Part shown: one piece after another, positions 596-30,218 of the stretch
Layout of the letters: the number at the start of each line of letters is the position of its first letter
How positions within the stretch are numbered: position 1 is the first letter of the stretch
Assembly (NCBI GenBank): GCA_964538685.1
Contig: CAZIFD010000002.1
Coordinates: 13,255 to 77,254 of the forward strand
Source of the DNA: an uncultured Bdellovibrionales bacterium
GTDB lineage: Bacteria; Patescibacteriota; Minisyncoccia; Moranbacterales; UBA2206
DNA: 64,000 bases
Direction of reading: 5' to 3'
The notes under the pieces: generated by a model
What the model was told of the DNA's origin: nothing
Database searches by the model: none
What the model saw: the letters and a program-made list of their open reading frames with translations, nothing else
Translations under genes and position numbers: made by a program

Positions 596-794
596 CTGAT
601 GGATAGAAAACTTAGTGTTTCCACTATATTATACGGCGGAAATAAAGGCAAATTGAAGAAATAAAGCTGTGCGCTTTAGCGTTTTGTGGAAAAAGTGATG
701 TGAGTGCGTAAACTTGATAAATTTTCATAAAAATGCAATACTTATTCATACAATATTGCCTAAACTTGCCAACAGCAAGCATGGCTCAAATAAT

Positions 795-950
795 CCTAGC
801 TAACAAAAACGGCCTCATGGTCGGCGCTTGTTAGCTAGGTCGGTTTTCTGAAAAGAAATCCGGGCATATTCGAAAGAATATGTCGCCTGATCCGTGAGGC
901 TTTTTTTGTTCTTTAAAAATTTAGATTAATAATTAAACCTAGCTAACAAC
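795..950 (+). promoter_or_regulatory. Structured leader upstream of ORF 951: a 12-bp-stem hairpin (795-806 / 828-839) whose arm sequence recurs at 938-949 abutting the start codon, a palindrome at 865-882, and a hairpin + T-run at 884-908
   Basis: Read directly: 'cctagctaacaa' at 795-806, its reverse complement 'ttgttagctagg' at 828-839, and 'cctagctaacaac' at 938-950 immediately before ATG 951. Also 'catattc gaaa gaatatg' at 865-882 and 'gcctgatccgtgaggc' followed by 'ttttttt' at 884-908. Confidence 0.4.
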
Positions 951-2048
951 ATGAAAAAAAATAAAAAGGAACTTCTATTTCATATAGATTCTCCAAAAGA
1001 ATTCAATGAGAAAGAAAATTTAATCAATACAAATGATAATATCCTCGCCATAACTGGATGGATTTTGATTAAAGAAGAACCAGCCAAAGTAAAGGTTAAA
1101 AACATAACAACCGGAGAAAAATATGAATCAAGAATAAAAATTGAAAGAGATGATGTAGCCAAAGCTTTTCCAAAAATACCCGAAGCAAAAAATTCCGGAT
1201 TTTTCGTAAGCATACCACTGAGAAACAAAAATGAAAAAATATCTCTGTATTGTGAGATTGATAATGAAGAAATTGTTCTTGGAGAAATTAAAACAAATTT
1301 TATTCCCAAAAACTACCTTCCCGAATTTAAAAATATCAAAAAGGGAATAAGAAAAGGAAGAAATATCTATGAGGGTTATCAAAGAGGATGGGGTTTGCAA
1401 CATGGCGATCTAATTAAAGAGATTGAAAATGACAATCTTTATAGAGAGGCTATTGAACTGTCCCGATCCAGAACAATTGTAAGAGAAGAACATCTTATGA
1501 ATATTTTCCTGATAATGAAATTTGGCCTTCCGAAAATTTCTCAGGGAGATATTATAGAATTTGGATCATATACTGGAGGAAGTGCTATTTTTATGGCTCA
1601 ACTTACCAAAAGATTACATCCAAATATTAAAGTTTATGCCCTTGATACATTTACTGGAATGCCAGAAACAGATAAATCAATAGATGCTCACAACCAAGCT
1701 GATTTCAATAATGTGAATTTACAAGAACTTAGAAACTACGCCAAAGAAATAGGATTGGATAATTTGGAATTTCATCAAGGAATGTTTGAAGATACGGCTA
1801 TTTCTATTTTGAAAAAAGCCAAAAACATTTCTTTGTCTCACATAGATTGCGATATTTATTCAGCAGTAGCTTTCTCTTATGAGGCAGTCAAAAATTATAT
1901 GGTGCCGGGAGGCTATGTAGTTTTTGATGACGCTTGCATTTCGTCTTGCATAGGAGCTACTGAGGCAGTGGAAGAATACCTTATTAAAAAAGATCAACTA
2001 CATTCAGAACAAATATATCCCCACTTTGTATTTAGAATGGGATTGTAA
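951..2048 (+). CDS. Two-domain protein: unknown N-terminal domain (~170 aa) + C-terminal TylF/MycF-like class I SAM-dependent O-methyltransferase
   Basis: C-terminal half shows macrocin-O-methyltransferase family motifs: IEFGSYTGGSAIFMA (compare E-GV-RGGS), ALDTFTGMPE (compare D-F-G-P), HIDCDIYSAV...GGYVVFDD. A strong hairpin terminator follows. Confidence 0.6.
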   Translation: MKKNKKELLFHIDSPKEFNEKENLINTNDNILAITGWILIKEEPAKVKVKNITTGEKYESRIKIERDDVAKAFPKIPEAKNSGFFVSIPLRNKNEKISLYCEIDNEEIVLGEIKTNFIPKNYLPEFKNIKKGIRKGRNIYEGYQRGWGLQHGDLIKEIENDNLYREAIELSRSRTIVREEHLMNIFLIMKFGLPKISQGDIIEFGSYTGGSAIFMAQLTKRLHPNIKVYALDTFTGMPETDKSIDAHNQADFNNVNLQELRNYAKEIGLDNLEFHQGMFEDTAISILKKAKNISLSHIDCDIYSAVAFSYEAVKNYMVPGGYVVFDDACISSCIGATEAVEEYLIKKDQLHSEQIYPHFVFRMGL

Positions 2049-2066
2049 ATAAATGTTTCAAACACT

Positions 2067-2090
2067 AAAAACCGCCAAGAGGCGGTTTTT
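2067..2090 (+). terminator. Rho-independent terminator after ORF 951..2048
   Basis: 'aaaaaccgccaagaggcggttttt': 7-bp GC-rich stem with a T-run. Confidence 0.7.
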
Positions 2091-2096
2091 AGTTGG

Positions 2097-2199
2097 CGGG
2101 CAATGTCGGTCTAGAACTTGTAATCATAAAAAAGTTTAAGGGTTTTCTAGGGATATGGCAAGAATAGAAATTTAAAAAGGTCGGGTCGCAAATTTTGAA
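2097..2199. repeat. Left copy of a ~100-bp imperfect direct repeat flanking the DUF3800/HD cassette
   Basis: 'gcgggcaatgtcggtctagaact' at 2097-2119 is identical to 3679-3701. 'ggtcgcaa(a)ttttgaa' at 2184-2199 matches 3766-3780, at the same spacing. Confidence 0.6.
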
Positions 2200-2394
2200 T
2201 GAAAATTAAGTGAAGTCTTTTAATAAATTTACTACTACCAATCTAATCATGAAATTCACCTCAAATAAAAGAAAATTCTGAAGTTATCCACAGATACTTG
2301 AAATAACTTAACAAATATACTACTATTGTCATAGAAGTAATTCCTCCTGTGTTGAAATACCGTAAGGCGTTTCGTTAAAGCAGGGGGTTTTCTT

Positions 2395-3024
2395 TTATCT
2401 GAAAAGCAGGCTTTCTTCGATAATTTTGTCTTTTATTTCTTCATAATACCCATAGTCATTTCTTTCATATTTTCTAAAAATTGCCCAACTGACAAAATCC
2501 ACTGCCTGCAGACATTTTTCCGTATGAGATGCTTTAATTTTTATTTCAATTCTCCCATTATTCCCTCTTTTCACCAGATTGTCCTTCAAATATTTTTCAA
2601 AGTTCTCCCTGATAAATTTATTCGTATCTTTTTTGTCTATATAAAGACTGATTGGCTCATCAATCCTGATAAGTCTCCTGTTATGCAACCGATCTAATAA
2701 TATGTTAGCAGTATAGTTGTATAGATAGTTTTTCTGACTTTGCAGATCTACATAAACTTTCTTTTTGTTTAAAACAACGCAGAGTACCTTCAAATCATCT
2801 AGTTCGCACAATTTCCTCAGCATCCTATGTTTTGTGATCGCATCAGAATGATAGGCATGCAACTCTCTTAGCTTGTATTTCTTCTTTAGCCCTCTCCTAA
2901 TATTTTTGATAACCTTTTCAATTTTCTTGTGATCGTTAGTCAAGACAATCGTAAAAAGAAACCATTTACTTGAAGTTTCTTTAAAACCAAGATCTCCGCT
3001 CTCGTCTAAAAATATATGCGCCAT
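2395..3024 (-). CDS. DUF3800-family protein
   Basis: N-terminus MAHIFLDESGDLG matches the hallmark DUF3800 start (hIDESG). Size 209 aa. Spacing and orientation suggest co-transcription with the HD gene upstream. Confidence 0.55.
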   Translation of the reverse strand: MAHIFLDESGDLGFKETSSKWFLFTIVLTNDHKKIEKVIKNIRRGLKKKYKLRELHAYHSDAITKHRMLRKLCELDDLKVLCVVLNKKKVYVDLQSQKNYLYNYTANILLDRLHNRRLIRIDEPISLYIDKKDTNKFIRENFEKYLKDNLVKRGNNGRIEIKIKASHTEKCLQAVDFVSWAIFRKYERNDYGYYEEIKDKIIEESLLFR

Positions 3025-3033
3025 TTTTATTTA

Positions 3034-3582
3034 CTATTTCTTTATAAACTTTTCAACCCACCTATTAAATATTTTCACCTTATCGTCACCAAACTTTAAC
3101 GCTTCAGCCCTGATCATTTCAGGACTTTTTTCTTTAGATAAAAATTCTTCGTTTTTTGTAAAGAATTTATCTGCAAAACAAACTATTTTTTCCTCTACGG
3201 AAATTGGGATCATATCCCTTTTGGGGATGGGTAACTTTTGTTTTTCAATATCTTTTATCGAAATTCCTACTCCCATATGTCTTTCACAAACTAATGCATG
3301 CTTTGGGAAACCCTCTTTTTCCAAAATTTCTCTACCCAAATATCCATGACAAATGTAAGGTTCTTTTCCGAAGCATCCAATTTCCGGAGTATTAGTCAAA
3401 AAGATCCCAATATCATGAAGCATGGCAGATTCCTCAATAAATTTTAAATCAGGATTAAGATGAGAAACATTTTTTCCAATTTCAACAGCTTTTTTAGCAA
3501 CCGCCTCACTATGTTTTACTAAAAATTTATAAGCTTTAGAATCTACCTGGTAATATTTTTGGATTATCTTTAATGGATCCAT
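3034..3582 (-). CDS. HD-domain phosphohydrolase
   Basis: HD motif ...AMLHDIGIFL..., plus downstream His/Asp residues (HGYLGREIL, CFADKF). 182 aa. Confidence 0.7.
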   Translation of the reverse strand: MDPLKIIQKYYQVDSKAYKFLVKHSEAVAKKAVEIGKNVSHLNPDLKFIEESAMLHDIGIFLTNTPEIGCFGKEPYICHGYLGREILEKEGFPKHALVCERHMGVGISIKDIEKQKLPIPKRDMIPISVEEKIVCFADKFFTKNEEFLSKEKSPEMIRAEALKFGDDKVKIFNRWVEKFIKK

Positions 3583-3678
3583 ATATTTCTATTTTAGCAT
3601 AAAACCACATTTCGGTGGCTTTGGAGATTTACCCATTTTTCGAAGTGATTAGGTCACCTTCGATACTATGAGCTTGAT

Positions 3679-3780
3679 GCGGGCAATGTCGGTCTAGAAC
3701 TTTCAGATATCAAGTATTATAAGGATTTTTTGAGATTCGTCTATACGCAGAATTTAAGGCTCCTCGGTCGCAATTTTGAA
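3679..3780. repeat. Right copy of the direct repeat flanking the DUF3800/HD cassette
   Basis: See 2097..2199. A 23-bp identical core plus a second conserved block about 85 bp downstream. Confidence 0.6.
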
Positions 3781-3916
3781 GGGCAAATGAGACACCAGAC
3801 AGCCCTTGTCTTATTTTGGAGAAATAAGACGGTAACCTGTTTCATTTAGACATTGCTACTTATCTATAAACTTTGGTAGAATATAATAGGAAATAAGCAA
3901 TTTAATCAAGTTAAAC

Positions 3917-4546
3917 ATGATATATATAAAAGAAGATTCCATTGTAGATGCTTGGAAAAAAAGCATTAAGGAGCTTTATTTAAAAGGCATAGAATCACAA
4001 AAAGGAGAATTTTATAGATTTTCACATGCTATTATTGAAATCTCAAACACAACATCTAAAGATACATATGATGAAAATTTTCCAATGTCTAAAGAAAGTA
4101 TTGATATCATTAACAATTATCTCTTAACAGGAGAAAATGAAGACAAGGTGATTCATGATTGGACAAAAATTTATAGAAACAGGCTATTTGCAAAAAAATA
4201 TAATCAAATAAAACAAATCATCGAATATCTTAGAAAAAAACCCACTGGAAAACGCGCACAAGCTTCAATTTGGAATCAAGAAGTAGATTTGTACGGAAAA
4301 ATCAGCCCATGCCTTCAATTATTGTGGTTTCAAATAATCAATGGAAAACTTGAAATGCATACCCATATGCGAGCAACGGATTGCTATGGAAAACTTCTTA
4401 TGAATATTAACGAATTTATTACATTGCAAAATTTTATTGCTAAAAAATTAGAATTAAAAAGTGGACTCTATGTTCAATTTATTGACTCACTTCATTTTAA
4501 TTCAAACGATAAAGAGCTAATAGATAATCTCCTAGAAAAAATTTAA
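3917..4546 (+). CDS. Compact thymidylate synthase-like / dNMP hydroxymethylase-like enzyme (209 aa)
   Basis: Alignable by eye to the ThyA core: RAQASIWN (ThyA RRIIVSAWN), ISPCLQLLWFQ (ThyA APCHAFFQF, catalytic Cys), NGKLEMH (DGKLSCQ), RATDCYGKLLMNINEFITLQ (RSCDVFLGLPFNIASYALL), DSLHFNSND (DTHLYSNH). It lacks the N-terminal segments of full-length ThyA. Confidence 0.65.
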   Translation: MIYIKEDSIVDAWKKSIKELYLKGIESQKGEFYRFSHAIIEISNTTSKDTYDENFPMSKESIDIINNYLLTGENEDKVIHDWTKIYRNRLFAKKYNQIKQIIEYLRKKPTGKRAQASIWNQEVDLYGKISPCLQLLWFQIINGKLEMHTHMRATDCYGKLLMNINEFITLQNFIAKKLELKSGLYVQFIDSLHFNSNDKELIDNLLEKI

Positions 4547-4634
4547 AGCCCATGCACAGTTTGTGCTACATGAGCTTTTGTTGGTTATTTTGGTTGTTTT
4601 CAATAAGCTTTCACATCCCCACAATTGGGAAATA

Positions 4635-5192
4635 TTAGAGGCTGTTCAGGTAGTGCTCGTAGATGACTTCGGCAAGTTCCTGATCGCTGCCCTCATGCGT
4701 CGTTACGCACAAGCTGAAATATCCATCGTAGAAGCCCTGATGAAATGCTTGTAGCTCATCTCTGGCTTCAGTAATTCTAGATCCATCCTTATCGCGATTG
4801 TCTTTTGCCAATCTTTTTTCCAATTCCTCGAGAGAGGGTGGAAGTAGATAGACTACACACAATCGGCCTGCAAACGCTTTGGTCATTATGCCTAACCGAT
4901 TCACTGGCCAATCCAAGACTGGAAAGCGTAATTCGTTTAGGGCTGTGGTAATGGGGACGATCGGAGTTGCGTATCGTATGCCATACTTCTCGTTTACCGT
5001 GAGAAATTCTCCGCGTTTAATCATCTCGTTCATGGCGTCATCAGAGATGCAGATTTTGTCTGTTTCACCATCTCTGAGCGTTCTTGTCATATACGGAGAA
5101 ATGTACACAAAGCGCTTATCTAGTTTACAAAGTTGCACTATGATAGTGCTTTTTCCGACGCCTGAAGCACCCAGCATATGTGCTTGCCCCAC
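4635..5192 (-). CDS. Guanylate kinase-like nucleoside-monophosphate kinase
   Basis: Walker A GASGVGKST; SPYMTRTLRDGE resembles Gmk S-TTR-PR-GE; LLPPSLEELEKRL resembles Gmk ILPPS-ELDRRL. The local GC is visibly higher than in flanking DNA. Confidence 0.7.
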   Translation of the reverse strand: MGQAHMLGASGVGKSTIIVQLCKLDKRFVYISPYMTRTLRDGETDKICISDDAMNEMIKRGEFLTVNEKYGIRYATPIVPITTALNELRFPVLDWPVNRLGIMTKAFAGRLCVVYLLPPSLEELEKRLAKDNRDKDGSRITEARDELQAFHQGFYDGYFSLCVTTHEGSDQELAEVIYEHYLNSL

Positions 5193-10612: not shown

Positions 10613-10819
10613 ATCGCGACCGAAGGGAGCGTGCGAGGCGCAAGTATCATTCGTCAAAATCCTGCGGATTTTACCCGAAATACATTCGAACTTTGTCCAA
10701 TACACACCGCCAAAATTGAAAATCGGAATCGGAAGCAAAAATGCGGTCGGCGCGAAGCGCCGTCTGTTCTGAATTCCCCCCAAAAAATCCTGAATCTGAA
10801 AGGGTTCGCCAATACAATT

Positions 10820-12394
10820 ATGAATAATCAAACCAAAAAATTTTTCATTTATACTCGCAAGTCTACGGACGACAAAGACAGACAAGTCCGCAGTATTTCT
10901 GACCAATTAGCTGAGCTGAAAAGTTTAGCGTTAAAAGAACAACTGGAAGTGGTAGATGTCTTTGTCGAAAAGCAGACCGCCAAAATACCAGGTCGGCCAG
11001 TGTTTAACGAAATGTTGGAGCGAATGGAGAAAGGCGAAGCGACTGGTATTTTGGCATGGCACCCCGACAGATTGGCGAGAAATAGTGTTGATGGTGGAAA
11101 AATTATCTACCTCGTTGATACTGGTGTAATTTCCGAAATGAAATTTCCAACTTTTTGGTTTGATCCGACACCGCAAGGCAAATTCATGCTTTCAATCGCT
11201 TTTTCGCAATCCAAGTATTATGTGGACAATTTAAGCGAGAATATAAAGCGTGGTAAGCGAAACAAAGTGAAAGACGGAATATGGCCTCAAATGTCTCCGC
11301 TTGGATATGTGAATAAAAATAGAAAGATTGTTCCCGATGAAAATATCGCACCCTTAATCAAGAAAACATTTGAGGCATATTCGTCTGGGTCTTTCACTTT
11401 GCGCGAACTTCGTGACAAATTTAACGGACTTGGATTGAAGCGAAAAAGCGGAAAGGAACTTGCGGTGTCGAATTATCAAAAACTTCTCAAAAATCCTATT
11501 TACACTGGTCTAATGCTCTACAACGGAGAGATTTTTGAGGGCAAGCACGAACCGATTATCACAAAGAAGCTTTTTGATTCTGTTCAAGAAGTGATGATGA
11601 GAAAATCTCAACCGAAAGGAAAAGGACTAAAGCCATTTTTGTATAGAGGATTTTTCCGTTGTGGGGAATGTGGCTGTTTCATTACCACCGAAACGCAGAA
11701 AGGTCATAACTATTTGCGATGTACCAAACGGAAAAATCCCTGCTCACAAAAATATGCTCGCGAGGAAATCATCACTTCAGAAATTCAAAAGGAAATCAAA
11801 AAAGTTTCTTTGCCAGACGATTGGGCTTCTTGGATGTTAGTGGAAAACGAAAAGGATAAATTGGTGGAAGCCCAATCGTCTACGCTTTTTGCAGACAACA
11901 CAAAAGCCGAAATTTCTCTTTTGGATTCCAAGATTGAGAAGCTGATGAACGCCTATTTAGAGAACATACTTTCGCTAGAAGAATATCGGGATGTTAAAAG
12001 TGCGTTAGTGAACCAAAAACAGCTTCTCAAAGAGAAATTATCGGCTTTTGAGCAAAAAGCGAATAATCGGTTCGAACTTGCCGAAAAGTTTTTAAAATAC
12101 AATGTGGAATTGGCAAACGAGGGAATAAATGAAGAGAAACTTCATTTATTCAAAAAAGTCGGTTCGAACTTTATTATTGAAGCTCGAACCGTACTTTTTG
12201 AGCCACGCGGAGCGTGGAAAAACCTTTTGAATTCGGGAATTCTTGGCGGGAATGCATTTGTGTCGGCGCTTCGCGCCGACCGCATTTTTGCTTCCGATTC
12301 CGATTTTCAATTTTGGCGGGCTACTCGAGTTAAGTACCCACGATATACAAGCATTGTAAGGCTTTTTGAGCGATCTGTAAATGGTTGGATTTAA
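10820..12394 (+). CDS. Large serine recombinase (integrase)
   Basis: Start reassigned to MNNQTKKFFIYTRKSTDDKD (resolvase catalytic-Ser motif YxRxST). Recombinase domain, Cys-rich zinc ribbon (CGECGCF...CTKRKNPC) and C-terminal coiled coil. The track ORF begins upstream at 10631. Confidence 0.85.
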   Translation: MNNQTKKFFIYTRKSTDDKDRQVRSISDQLAELKSLALKEQLEVVDVFVEKQTAKIPGRPVFNEMLERMEKGEATGILAWHPDRLARNSVDGGKIIYLVDTGVISEMKFPTFWFDPTPQGKFMLSIAFSQSKYYVDNLSENIKRGKRNKVKDGIWPQMSPLGYVNKNRKIVPDENIAPLIKKTFEAYSSGSFTLRELRDKFNGLGLKRKSGKELAVSNYQKLLKNPIYTGLMLYNGEIFEGKHEPIITKKLFDSVQEVMMRKSQPKGKGLKPFLYRGFFRCGECGCFITTETQKGHNYLRCTKRKNPCSQKYAREEIITSEIQKEIKKVSLPDDWASWMLVENEKDKLVEAQSSTLFADNTKAEISLLDSKIEKLMNAYLENILSLEEYRDVKSALVNQKQLLKEKLSAFEQKANNRFELAEKFLKYNVELANEGINEEKLHLFKKVGSNFIIEARTVLFEPRGAWKNLLNSGILGGNAFVSALRADRIFASDSDFQFWRATRVKYPRYTSIVRLFERSVNGWI

Positions 12395-12421
12395 GGTGTT
12401 TGGGTCGGGGTCTAAAACAAG

Positions 12422-12472
12422 AATGAGACAAATGAGACACTAAAAGGGTGTCTCGCACCTCTGTCTCATTTG
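12422..12472. repeat. att-like imperfect palindrome about 30 bp downstream of the recombinase stop
   Basis: Tandem 'aatgagaca' x2 (12422-12439), 'gtgtctc' (12448-12454), 'gtctcatttg' (12463-12472). 'caaatgagacac' also occurs at 3784-3795. Confidence 0.35.
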
Positions 12473-28690: not shown

Positions 28691-30019
28691 ATGGATTACC
28701 CAAAAACCAACCAAATAGGGGCGATTACCAAATCAGAGCCAATTGCGATGCCTGTCCGATATTGTCTCTACGCCCGCAAAAGTACCGAGAGTGAGGAGCG
28801 CCAAATACTCTCTATTGATTCCCAGATCAAGGAGATGCTTCAACTGGCAGAGCGTGAAAGCTTGGAGATAGTTGAAATAAAGCGCGAATCGCATAGTGCC
28901 AAGGAAACAGGGCAAAGACCGATTTTTAATGAAATTGTTGAAGAAATAAAACAAGGAAAATTCAACGGTATTCTGACTTGGGCACCGGATAGAATTTCCA
29001 GAAATGCTGGAGATCTTGGAAAAATAGTAGATCTGATGGACAGCGGAGCTTTAAAAGAAATCAGAACTTATGGGCAACGATTTACTGATTCGCCAAATGA
29101 AAAATTTCTACTAATGATTTTGGGATCTCAAGCTAAACTAGAAAATGATAATCGTGGCATCAATGTAAAGCGAGGACTTCGTGCCAGATGCGAAATGGGA
29201 CTATGGCCAACGGTGGCACCGCTTGGATATCTCAATCAAAGGCACATGGACAAAAAATGCCAGCTGATTCAGGATCCACAAAGAGCGTCAGTTATAAAAA
29301 AGATATTTGAAAAAGTAGCTTATGAACATTATTCGGGCAGGAAAATATATCATTGGTTAAGATTTGAGCTAAATTTCTATACCAGAGGAAATAAGCCACT
29401 GACATTAGGTGGGGTGTATCGGGTTCTTGAAAATCCTTTCTACTATGGAGTCTTTGAATACCCAGTCAAAAGCGGAAATTGGTATACCGGAAAACATGAA
29501 CCGATAATCACCCAGGAGATATTCGAAAAAGCCCAGGCCTGGCTAAAAAGAGATAAAATTGTCCGGGAAAATAAAGAGTTCGCCTTTACTAAATTGTTCA
29601 CCTGCGGATATTGCGGATCGGGAATATCCGCCGAAGAAAAATACAAACAACTGAAAGACGGTACACACGCCAGATATATCTACTATTCCTGCTCGAGAGC
29701 CAGAGACCGGCATTGCAAAAACAAATATATCCGCGAGGAAGAATTGATCACCGAGCTTCTAAAAATAATCGATCAAATGAATATCAATGAACTAGGAATG
29801 AGGCAGAAATTGGAAGATGAAATCAATCGCTTCAATATTTTTCAAAAATCAGTGATGGGAGAAAAACACAAAATTCAAAATACCAAAGATACAGATATCC
29901 GAAATTATGCCAAATACCTACTTAAAGAGGGGTCGGTATCGGAAAAAAGAGAACTTCTCGGAAATCTAAGATCGAGGATAATATACAAAGATAAAAAACT
30001 GGAGCTGGTGAAAGAATAG
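28691..30019 (+). CDS. Large serine recombinase (integrase), adjacent to tRNA-Ser
   Basis: RYCLYARKSTESEE (catalytic Ser motif), resolvase and recombinase domains, Cys-rich zinc ribbon (CGYCGSG ... YYSCSRARDRHC). 442 aa. Ends 112 bp from the tRNA-Ser 3' end. Confidence 0.85.
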   Translation: MDYPKTNQIGAITKSEPIAMPVRYCLYARKSTESEERQILSIDSQIKEMLQLAERESLEIVEIKRESHSAKETGQRPIFNEIVEEIKQGKFNGILTWAPDRISRNAGDLGKIVDLMDSGALKEIRTYGQRFTDSPNEKFLLMILGSQAKLENDNRGINVKRGLRARCEMGLWPTVAPLGYLNQRHMDKKCQLIQDPQRASVIKKIFEKVAYEHYSGRKIYHWLRFELNFYTRGNKPLTLGGVYRVLENPFYYGVFEYPVKSGNWYTGKHEPIITQEIFEKAQAWLKRDKIVRENKEFAFTKLFTCGYCGSGISAEEKYKQLKDGTHARYIYYSCSRARDRHCKNKYIREEELITELLKIIDQMNINELGMRQKLEDEINRFNIFQKSVMGEKHKIQNTKDTDIRNYAKYLLKEGSVSEKRELLGNLRSRIIYKDKKLELVKE

Positions 30020-30058: not shown

Positions 30059-30131
30059 TTCAATTTTTTATGTCTTCGGGTCGCTCATTCGTCTCGATAG
30101 AATGGGTCTATCCGATAAAAAATTGTCGATG

Positions 30132-30218
30132 CGGAGAGAGGGAGATTCGAACTCCCGAGACCCGTTAAGATCTACTTGCTTTCCAAGCAAGCGCACTCGA
30201 CCACTATGCGATCTCTCC
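30132..30218 (-). tRNA. tRNA-Ser (anticodon GGA), class II with long variable arm; no encoded CCA
   Basis: Reverse complement GGAGAGATCGCATAGTGGTCGAGTGCGCTTGCTTGGAAAGCAAGTAGATCTTAACGGGTCTCGGGAGTTCGAATCTCCCTCTCTCCG. 7-bp acceptor stem. Anticodon stem CTTGC/GCAAG with loop TTGGAAA. Long variable arm. T-arm GGGAG-TTCGAAT-CTCCC. Confidence 0.85.

Follow-up and report, generated by a model that had tools for sequence, protein, structure and literature searches.

Within a 64-kb stretch of a Patescibacteria (candidate phyla radiation, CPR) genome, hereafter the window, an HD-type phosphohydrolase gene and a DUF3800 gene lie between two direct repeats. We propose that window positions 2096-3678 form a small integrative module bounded by attachment (att) sites, which lacks a recombinase, is mobilised in trans and belongs to an array downstream of a tRNA-Ser(GGA) gene; this is, in our judgement, the probable explanation of the locus. 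The unit is 1.58 kb long and encodes no recombinase. In module orientation, which is the reverse complement of the window, it consists of a leader, the HD gene, the DUF3800 gene, a small RNA and a terminal repeat, R1, with ~190 nucleotides (nt) of non-coding sequence between DUF3800 and R1. Modules in head-to-tail order make up the distal end of a ~28-kb island that begins at the tRNA gene, and this unit is the last of them. For comparison, ~85 related loci were gathered by exact-protein look-ups and a protein-guided metagenome scan, and motifs were counted over the 1.1 Mb formed by the window and these loci.

The boundaries of the module are defined by its occurrence in other genomic contexts. 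One copy (L009-L012, represented by three independent assemblies from ENA, JGI and Logan) aligns over 1.53 kb at 93% nucleotide identity to window 2093-3621, plus 3651-3682, and is flanked by a CMAS-type methyltransferase gene and an unrelated small open reading frame (ORF). A third context, L081, has 83% nucleotide identity over 2095-3622, plus 3652-3682. The flanking genes are wholly different between the window, L009-L012 and L081. Nevertheless, the right ends stop in all contexts at ...GACCGA[CA/AG]T[TC]G[CT]CCGC/ and the left ends begin at CCGC/ATCAAGCTCATAG, where a final or internal slash marks the junction here and below; the same breakpoints in three contexts thus define the unit as window 2096-3678. 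Its leader (3583-3678, minus strand) begins with /ATCAAGCTCATAG, and homology to L010 and L081 starts exactly at this base. The leader carries TATCGAAGGTGACC at 3665-3652 and an extended -10 element, TGCTAAAAT, just ahead of the HD start.

The initial annotation had described an inserted cassette bracketed by both repeats. The insertion is borne out, as the breakpoints in L009-L012 and L081 fall precisely at the outer R1 edge and the inner edge of the second repeat's core, but only one repeat travels: R1 accompanies the module in L010 and L081, whereas the second copy, R2, is missing upstream of HD there. In its place stands a tRNA-Ser-like site in L010 and a true tRNA-Ser 3' end in L081. Since R2 stays behind, it belongs to the neighbouring unit, which carries a thymidylate-synthase-like (ThyA) gene. 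In L081 the left flank, GGGTTCGAATCCCTGTCTCTCCGC/, consists of the T-arm and acceptor end of a true tRNA-Ser. That of L010 is AAGTTCTAACTTCGTCCCACCTTCTCCGC/; a tRNA-Ser(GCT) gene lies 1.8 kb upstream, and the final 15 nt of the flank agree with its 3' end at 13 positions, a score equalled in 11 of 5000 shuffles. L010 has a second tRNA-Ser-like site, followed by a homologous leader, ahead of the neighbouring methyltransferase gene, and these two sites with their leaders indicate that L010, too, has units arrayed downstream of a tRNA-Ser gene.

A tRNA-like minihelix follows a tRNA-Ser end or an R core at L081:1618-1700 and L010:655-745; it has an acceptor-like stem and a T-arm broken by a 25-35-nt hairpin, and the one in L081 repeats 18 nt of the tRNA-Ser 3' end. 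We considered this 18-nt repeat, to the right of the module, as an attR site and rejected it, because a similar tRNA-like structure follows the tRNA-Ser(GGA) of L010 without a module. The repeat in L081 was probably present beforehand.

The terminal repeats are well defined in sequence and position. The window contains just two exact copies of the 23-mer GCGGGCAATGTCGGTCTAGAACT, at 2096-2118 and 3679-3701, and 100 dinucleotide shuffles give an expectation of 0 for a second copy even with three mismatches permitted. The initial annotation thus placed the second copy correctly and the first one base too far (2097 instead of 2096), and the exact direct repeat is 24 nt in full (2096-2119 and 3679-3702). 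The second block it pointed out, ggtcgcaa(a)ttttgaa, is indeed present at 2184-2199 and 3766-3780. The 24-nt repeat starts two homologous elements of ~115 nt, R1 (2096-2213) and R2 (3679-3795), which retain ~60% identity between the two blocks past the exact core; their Smith-Waterman score over ~115 nt was equalled in 0 of 2000 shuffles. The imperfect repeats, annotated at ~100 bp, are therefore real. They also lie on both sides of the HD/DUF3800 operon as described, but do not abut the genes: R1 ends 181 nt beyond the DUF3800 stop codon, and the R2 core begins 97 nt upstream of the HD start.

Both elements read on the minus strand. R1, the 3'-terminal site of the module, is 81% identical to its counterpart in L010, and its core (2096-2119) reads AAGTTCTAGACCGACATTGCCCGC/ in module orientation. 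A promoter scan found an outward-facing promoter-like site, TTGCCA-17-TAAACT, at 2161 to 2133 (minus strand) in the ~95-nt R1 arm. R2 (core 3679-3702), assigned to the ThyA unit by the repeat and by the comparison of contexts, has in its arm a promoter-like site on the same strand, TAGACG-16-TATAAT at 3743 to 3716, directed into the HD module.

A third, diverged copy, R3, lies at 12316-12431 (minus strand) and ends with ...GTAGCCCGC/. It is found by nhmmer with an E-value of 0.004 when R3 itself is left out of the profile; its alignment score against R2 was equalled in 0 of 2000 shuffles, and it is nearer in sequence to R2 than to R1. R3 abuts an inverted-repeat arm beside a large serine recombinase gene. 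All three copies have the same orientation, every one stands at a unit boundary, and all lie downstream of the tRNA-Ser(GGA) 3' end. With three copies in 64 kb arranged in this way, the repeat is not an intergenic element scattered across the sequence. The ~80 other loci contain no copies of R except within copies of the same module, and the region 1950-4000 has no match to an Rfam family at the gathering threshold or at E<=10. Neither strand of R1 or R2 folds better than shuffled sequence (z-scores +0.5 to +1.8); as all z-scores are positive, R as a structured RNA or as an integron attC site was ruled out.

An exact 20-mer scan of the R core gave 0 matches in 2.9 million viral contigs, 0 in JGI metagenome contigs and one in genome contigs; leader and R-arm patterns likewise had 0 matches in the viral contigs. 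The single match is intergenic in the Neisseriaceae bacterium JH1-16 (L001:2182-2203), where 22 nt of the core are exact and 25 nt match with one mismatch. It is probably a chance match, as by our own estimate about one 20-mer match is expected in 596 Gb, although the extension is slightly longer than expected. The R core also has the 10-mer GTCGGTCTAG (plus strand, window 2105-2114 and 3688-3697) in common with the D-loop of the L010 tRNA-Ser(GCT) (L010:4064-4073), possibly by chance.

The leaders of the modules provide a link to recombinases. They carry TATCGAG..GACC 13 nt after CCGC, and the same motif with the same spacing, CCGC-N13-TATCGGATAGACC, occurs in the trailer of the window tRNA-Ser gene, between the tRNA and a large serine recombinase gene (LSR1), with the junction at window 30134. 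On a viral contig, L089, the motif stands at 15-nt spacing between a tRNA-like 3' end and an LSR1 homologue. The generalised pattern CCGC-N11-16-TATCGRR-N0-6-GACC has nine occurrences in 1.1 Mb, solely at module leaders and at the two junctions between a tRNA and a large serine recombinase. From this sequence pattern we infer an attachment site for this recombinase family in which the leader forms the P' side and the R arm with its core forms the P side. A large serine recombinase is favoured because the module leaders share this position-specific motif with the tRNA/recombinase junctions; one of the two such enzymes encoded on the island is most likely the recombinase for the module, and LSR1 is a candidate for acting in trans.

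We propose the following mechanism. Every module would begin with the conserved leader and end in an R-type site made of a ~95-nt arm and a core ending in CCGC, so that a circular form would have R arm, core and leader as its attP. The predicted circular junction from R1 to the leader reads ...ATTGCCCGC/ATCAAGC or, written with the core, ...GACCGACATTGCCCGC/ATCAAGCTCATAG. A site-specific recombinase supplied in trans would join this attP to a resident site with a compatible core. A tRNA-Ser 3' end could serve as this resident site, and so could a tRNA-Ser-like remnant or the R site of a module inserted earlier. Integration at the R site of the ThyA unit would leave the 24-nt core on either side, which would account for the direct repeat, and the empty site is predicted as R2 core/CAACTAAAAACC, that is, the R2 core joined to CAACTAAAAACCGCC. 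The outward promoters of the R arms may in addition let a module drive the unit downstream of it.

The small RNA is the constant partner of the DUF3800 gene. It is ~65 nt long, lies at 2331-2400 on the plus strand and folds into a long hairpin with a U-run after it; its 3' end and the DUF3800 stop codon overlap. A promoter scan predicted a sigma-70-type promoter, TTGAAA-17-TACTAT, at 2298-2326 (plus strand); its position is conserved, and some loci have the full consensus TTGACA-17-TATAAT. RNAalifold gives 23 pairs, 12 of them with compensatory changes, and the G-U pairs are compatible only with the plus strand. The covariance model scores 85.3 bits in the window and finds one match per locus at 46 of 46 sites (the window and 45 other loci), even where the DUF3800 protein is only 22% identical. 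All sites are antisense to DUF3800 and beside its stop codon, abutting it except in the most distant loci. No Rfam 15 family, including the DUF3800-associated ones, matches window 2290-2420 at E<=10, and no such DUF3800 family reaches its gathering threshold at the small-RNA sites of 20 loci. With its covariation and its constant adjacency, the RNA fits the DUF3800-associated RNAs in the broad sense of Weinberg et al. 2017. A perfect DnaA-box sequence, TTATCCACA, lies at 2284-2292 (plus strand), ~5 nt upstream of the -35 hexamer; roughly one in four of the aligned loci has an identical box at this position, and further loci have a one-mismatch or inverted box there. This placement suggests DnaA-linked control of the small RNA. 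At L063, a DUF3800-V RNA (RF02964, 64.5 bits; L063:144-259, minus strand) lies 3.7 kb from a DUF3800 gene that also has the new convergent RNA, and therefore two different DUF3800-associated RNAs occur in one neighbourhood.

The two protein genes are co-oriented with a 9-nt gap. The DUF3800 protein (2395-3024, minus strand; 209 amino acids) matches Pfam PF12686 with 60.8 bits against a cut-off of 21 (E 3e-16). Its AlphaFold2 model has a pLDDT of 82.8, and the best matches in the PDB are RNase HII, H2A and HIII (1eke: E 1.4e-6, TM 0.57). Across 39 sequences, E8, D130, Q173 and D176 are invariant and D7 is nearly so; as modelled, the protein thus appears to have the family signature of an RNase H2-like fold, an N-terminal DE motif and a C-terminal QxxD motif. 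Published predictions give DUF3800 the same RNase H2-like fold (PMC7736814, PMC10910872). The HD/HDIG phosphohydrolase (3034-3582, minus strand; 182 amino acids) matches Pfam PF01966 with 36.6 bits against a cut-off of 22 (E 6e-9) and the NCBIfam HDIG model TIGR00277 with 31.7 against 27.6; its match to TIGR00295 is below the cut-off, and a sequence search of the PDB gave no match for it. Neither protein matches a family of PADLOC-DB 2.0 at E<=0.01.

Among 51 non-redundant DUF3800 contexts, HD is adjacent only in three module lineages, and in ~45 DUF3800 stands without it. The nucleotide homology of the DUF3800 unit across contexts extends from at most 9 nt before the ATG to ~62 nt after the stop codon. 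A homologue of the HD gene (79% amino acid and 82% nucleotide identity, confined to the ORF) forms a single-gene unit in an integron-like array. As judged from this distribution, HD and DUF3800 do not appear to be one system: HD reads as a free-standing phosphohydrolase gene, and the constant partner of DUF3800 appears to be the small RNA and not HD. DUF3800 with its small RNA may be a selfish or defensive module in which RNA controls or directs a nuclease, which we suggest with low confidence.

The array that contains the HD homologue (L082:1-10546, also L083-L085) has ~15 co-oriented small genes, including two HD, two NUDIX, UDG, isochorismatase and Lactamase_B genes. Most genes are followed by an attC-like repeat of ~100-150 nt, CTAACA...CCCAAATT...AACTTC...ACGTTATA, and by its sequence the array looks like a chromosomal integron. 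A profile of these repeats has no match in the window, and R is therefore unrelated to that repeat family.

Several points weigh against a site-specific module of the kind proposed. The module itself carries no recombinase gene, and the link of any recombinase to R is one that we infer. The link to the tRNA comes from L081, from the remnants in L010 and from positional analogy, and so is suggestive. The similarity of the R core to the tRNA-Ser 3' end was not significant in shuffle tests, and the R core as a tRNA 3' end was dropped on that ground. Large serine recombinase sites normally have only a short crossover sequence in common, so that a 24-nt identity exceeds the need; R1 and R2 may instead owe it to a common ancestor or to gene conversion. 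At the boundary between the ThyA unit and the unit of the second large serine recombinase (~4672), no recognisable R site is found in the window. The search for further copies and empty sites that the initial annotation had suggested yielded R3 and no empty site: exact look-ups of the TylF methyltransferase, the ThyA-like gene, the guanylate-kinase-like gene and P0241 gave no record, which we ascribe to the lack of a close relative of the flanking TylF methyltransferase (the closest is 60% identical). No excised circle of the module was found. Furthermore, identity to L081 is uniform along the module, whereas identity to L010 is a mosaic, with ~85-90% in HD, 99% in DUF3800 and the following 190 nt, and 81% in R1. 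The 99% block (window 2204-3060, comprising DUF3800, the small RNA and the 190 nt) within a module of 81-90% identity means that the DUF3800/RNA sub-unit was recently exchanged, or converted, in an older module; homologous exchange is thus also at work inside the module.

This leads to the question of whether homologous exchange could explain the locus as a whole. R would then be a duplicated, promoter-bearing intergenic segment, and cassettes would be swapped by ordinary homologous recombination, for example after DNA uptake, with no dedicated recombinase. The promoter-like sites in the R arms agree with this, as does the mosaic, which shows recent exchange or gene conversion, and 24 nt of identity is near the minimum length usable by RecA. 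However, the left flanks in L010 and L081 have only CCGC in common with R (plus AAGTTCTA in L010), yet the breakpoint is at the same base; the outer sides offer no homology for a double crossover; and a true tRNA 3' end at one junction together with recombinase genes by two cores are hallmarks of site-specific integration. We therefore consider homologous exchange alone unlikely, although it deserves attention. An accidental flanking of the operon by a dispersed repeat of the repetitive extragenic palindromic (REP) or miniature inverted-repeat transposable element (MITE) type has in its favour the three copies in 64 kb and the 22-nt exact core match in a Neisseriaceae genome. The copies, however, share one orientation, each at a boundary that was set independently by contig comparison, they have no terminal inverted repeats and no stable fold, and none occurs in the other loci, the 2.9 million viral contigs or the JGI metagenome set, which leaves such an accident very improbable.

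An integron origin is also conceivable, in which an IntI-type tyrosine integrase would have captured the unit as a cassette, with the repeats as attC sites. The HD homologue does occur in the L082-L085 array, whose repeats have RYYYAAC...GTTRRRY-like ends, and one DUF3800 locus, L037, has such a repeat nearby. But R lacks a stable hairpin on either strand, its boundaries read CCGC/ and not G/TTRRRY, the L082 repeat profile has no match in the window, the orientation of the ThyA gene is opposite to that of its site, and no tyrosine integrase (Phage_integrase) is found among the ORFs examined from 1 to 31.7 kb; we give this origin hardly any credence. The remaining alternative concerns function. 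The initial annotation had suggested that HD and DUF3800 make up a two-component defence or toxin module, and in its strong form the pair would be a dedicated two-protein anti-phage or toxin system with the repeats incidental. The genes look co-transcribed with their 9-nt gap and have not separated in the three module lineages, whose nucleotide sequences differ by 7-17%. The island is rich in defence genes (type I restriction-modification, other restriction and DNA-methylase genes, SMODS and a PDC-S06/PrrC-like AAA_13 ATPase), and DUF3800 domains occur in type VII retrons and Cas12a2-linked loci (PMC7736814, PMC10910872). Against this, DUF3800 mostly stands alone, HD is also found without DUF3800, in one case as a single gene, PADLOC has a model for neither protein, and the conserved partner is the small RNA; the two-component claim is thus not supported, and a dedicated pair is quite improbable. 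The att-bounded module mobilised in trans remains the reading that we prefer.

As such, the locus falls closest to the att-bounded, recombinase-less mobilizable units that accrete at tRNA genes, here in CPR bacteria and likely driven by a large serine recombinase. Cis-mobilizable elements (CIMEs), such as those related to ICESt1 of Streptococcus thermophilus, are att-flanked, lack an integrase and arise in the tandem accretion of integrative elements. The present units resemble them in being att-flanked, integrase-less and head to tail beside integrase-bearing elements at the 3' end of a conserved gene, with an att core repeated at each junction and the same unit in different arrays. They differ in their size of 1.0-1.6 kb, in their candidate large serine recombinases in place of tyrosine integrases and in their CPR host, and here they are known from sequence. 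Composite islands of the SCCmec type (staphylococcal cassette chromosome) with pseudo-SCC elements are mobilised by the CcrAB large serine recombinases. They likewise combine a large serine recombinase at the 3' end of a conserved gene with recombinase-less cassettes, parted by direct repeats and bearing accessory or defence cargo; here, however, the target is the tRNA-Ser 3' end and not rlmH, the repeat includes a ~95-nt arm, and there is no sequence relation to SCC sites. Integrons, too, consist of small cassettes, each with its own terminal recombination site, so that a repeat stands between neighbours, but R lacks the attC hairpin and the R' and R'' sites, the cassettes here carry promoters and are of mixed orientation, and no IntI was found in 1-31.7 kb.

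The small RNA also has parallels. In type I toxin-antitoxin loci such as txpA/RatA and bsrG/SR4, antisense RNAs overlap at the 3' end. The present RNA is similarly convergent, with its 3' end over that of the protein gene and a strong, constitutive-looking promoter, but the protein is a 209-amino-acid enzyme with a nuclease fold and not a small membrane peptide. Weinberg et al. 2017 described the DUF3800-associated RNA motifs I-XI, whose function was then unknown (PMC5737381). Like these, the RNA is a conserved structure beside a DUF3800 gene (on either strand in the known motifs), often ending as an intrinsic terminator; unlike them, it is ~65 nt long, fixed in convergent orientation with its 3' end on the stop codon, and often has a DnaA box at its promoter. 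Type VII retrons and Cas12a2-linked TPR-DUF3800 loci have the same Pfam domain, RNase H2-like fold, N-terminal DE motif and a non-coding RNA (PMC7736814, PMC10910872), whereas DUF3800 here stands alone at 209 amino acids, without a reverse transcriptase, Cas or TPR partner.

The routes by which CPR/Patescibacteria, with their reduced genomes, acquire and exchange accessory genes are poorly known. The locus gives base-precise bounds for a very small mobile unit and yields a candidate attachment site (CCGC core, R arm and leader motif) with two candidate recombinases, which is directly testable. The function of DUF3800-associated RNAs has been open since 2017; the locus carries a compact and very widespread version outside Rfam, which offers a simple experimental system, and the pair of DUF3800 and antisense RNA is the most intriguing part of the cargo. 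In a broader view, which is speculative and rather unlikely to hold in full, the R and leader sites would form an integron-like cassette platform of Patescibacteria based on tRNA-Ser-anchored large serine recombinases. It would shuffle promoter-bearing, recombinase-less cassettes of 1-1.6 kb head to tail between genomes, with DUF3800 and its antisense or guide RNA as a recurrent RNA-dependent conflict module.

The island is anchored by tRNA-Ser(GGA) (30131-30218, minus strand; ARAGORN and Rfam), whose 3' end and trailer read ...CTCTCCGC/ATCGACAATTTTTTATCGGATAGACCC. The tRNA gene lies at the island head, 26 kb from the module, and comes after a pyruvate kinase gene in the window and likewise in L010. 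LSR1 (28691-30019, plus strand; identified with Pfam) faces the tRNA-Ser 3' end with its own 3' end, 111 nt away. The second large serine recombinase, LSR2 (10631-12394, plus strand), has the Pfam domains Resolvase, Recombinase and Zn_ribbon_recom and is 35% identical to LSR1. Both follow directly after a core, LSR1 after the tRNA-Ser and LSR2 after R3. Homologues of LSR1 with 59-79% identity are found on IMG/VR contigs, and the one on L089 again faces a tRNA-like 3' end with the junction motif. LSR1 and a ParB-methyltransferase have homologues on a single IMG/VR contig, L086, and window 12.3-30.1 kb therefore looks like an integrated mobile element. LSR2 is bracketed by inverted repeats (10707-10811 and 12215-12319; 105 nt, 84% complementary), whose outer ends begin CCGC/CAAAATTG and one arm of which abuts the R3 core; they could delimit an invertible segment or be inverted att sites.

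The island between 4635 and 30130 is dense in defence and mobile genes. Its restriction-modification content comprises a type I system (HsdR/M/S), a TdeIII restriction enzyme with a D12 methyltransferase, and an N4/N6 methyltransferase. Other defence genes encode SMODS with AGS_C and the PDC-S06/PrrC-like AAA_13 ATPase, and there is a weak, sub-threshold HEPN match; a YgjP-like peptidase, the ParB-methyltransferase, a terminase-like helix-turn-helix protein and a guanylate-kinase-like gene are also present.

Beyond R2, the ThyA unit extends over 3796-4672 (plus strand) and consists of the thymidylate-synthase-like gene (3917-4546; Pfam and NCBIfam) and its flank. The protein is short, with 209 amino acids, and its top NCBIfam match, the methanogen-type TIGR03283, is below the cut-off. 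A strain variant, L002, is 99.7% identical over 2043-4672 and diverges at ~4672-4690, where the next unit boundary lies; past the breakpoint it has a DUF5680 gene with a related terminal site, AAGTTCTAAC... The ThyA-like gene adjoins the guanylate-kinase-like gene (window 3917-5192 together), and the two may form a pair for nucleotide modification. The last ~12 codons of the guanylate-kinase-like ORF (window 4635-4690) fall in non-coding sequence of L002 (L002:870-942), at the start of the ThyA unit there, which means that this ORF spans the unit junction. Outside the array, a LOOT RNA (RF03000) lies at 757-884 (plus strand) with 60.4 bits against a gathering threshold of 46.4, directly upstream of the TylF-like methyltransferase gene.

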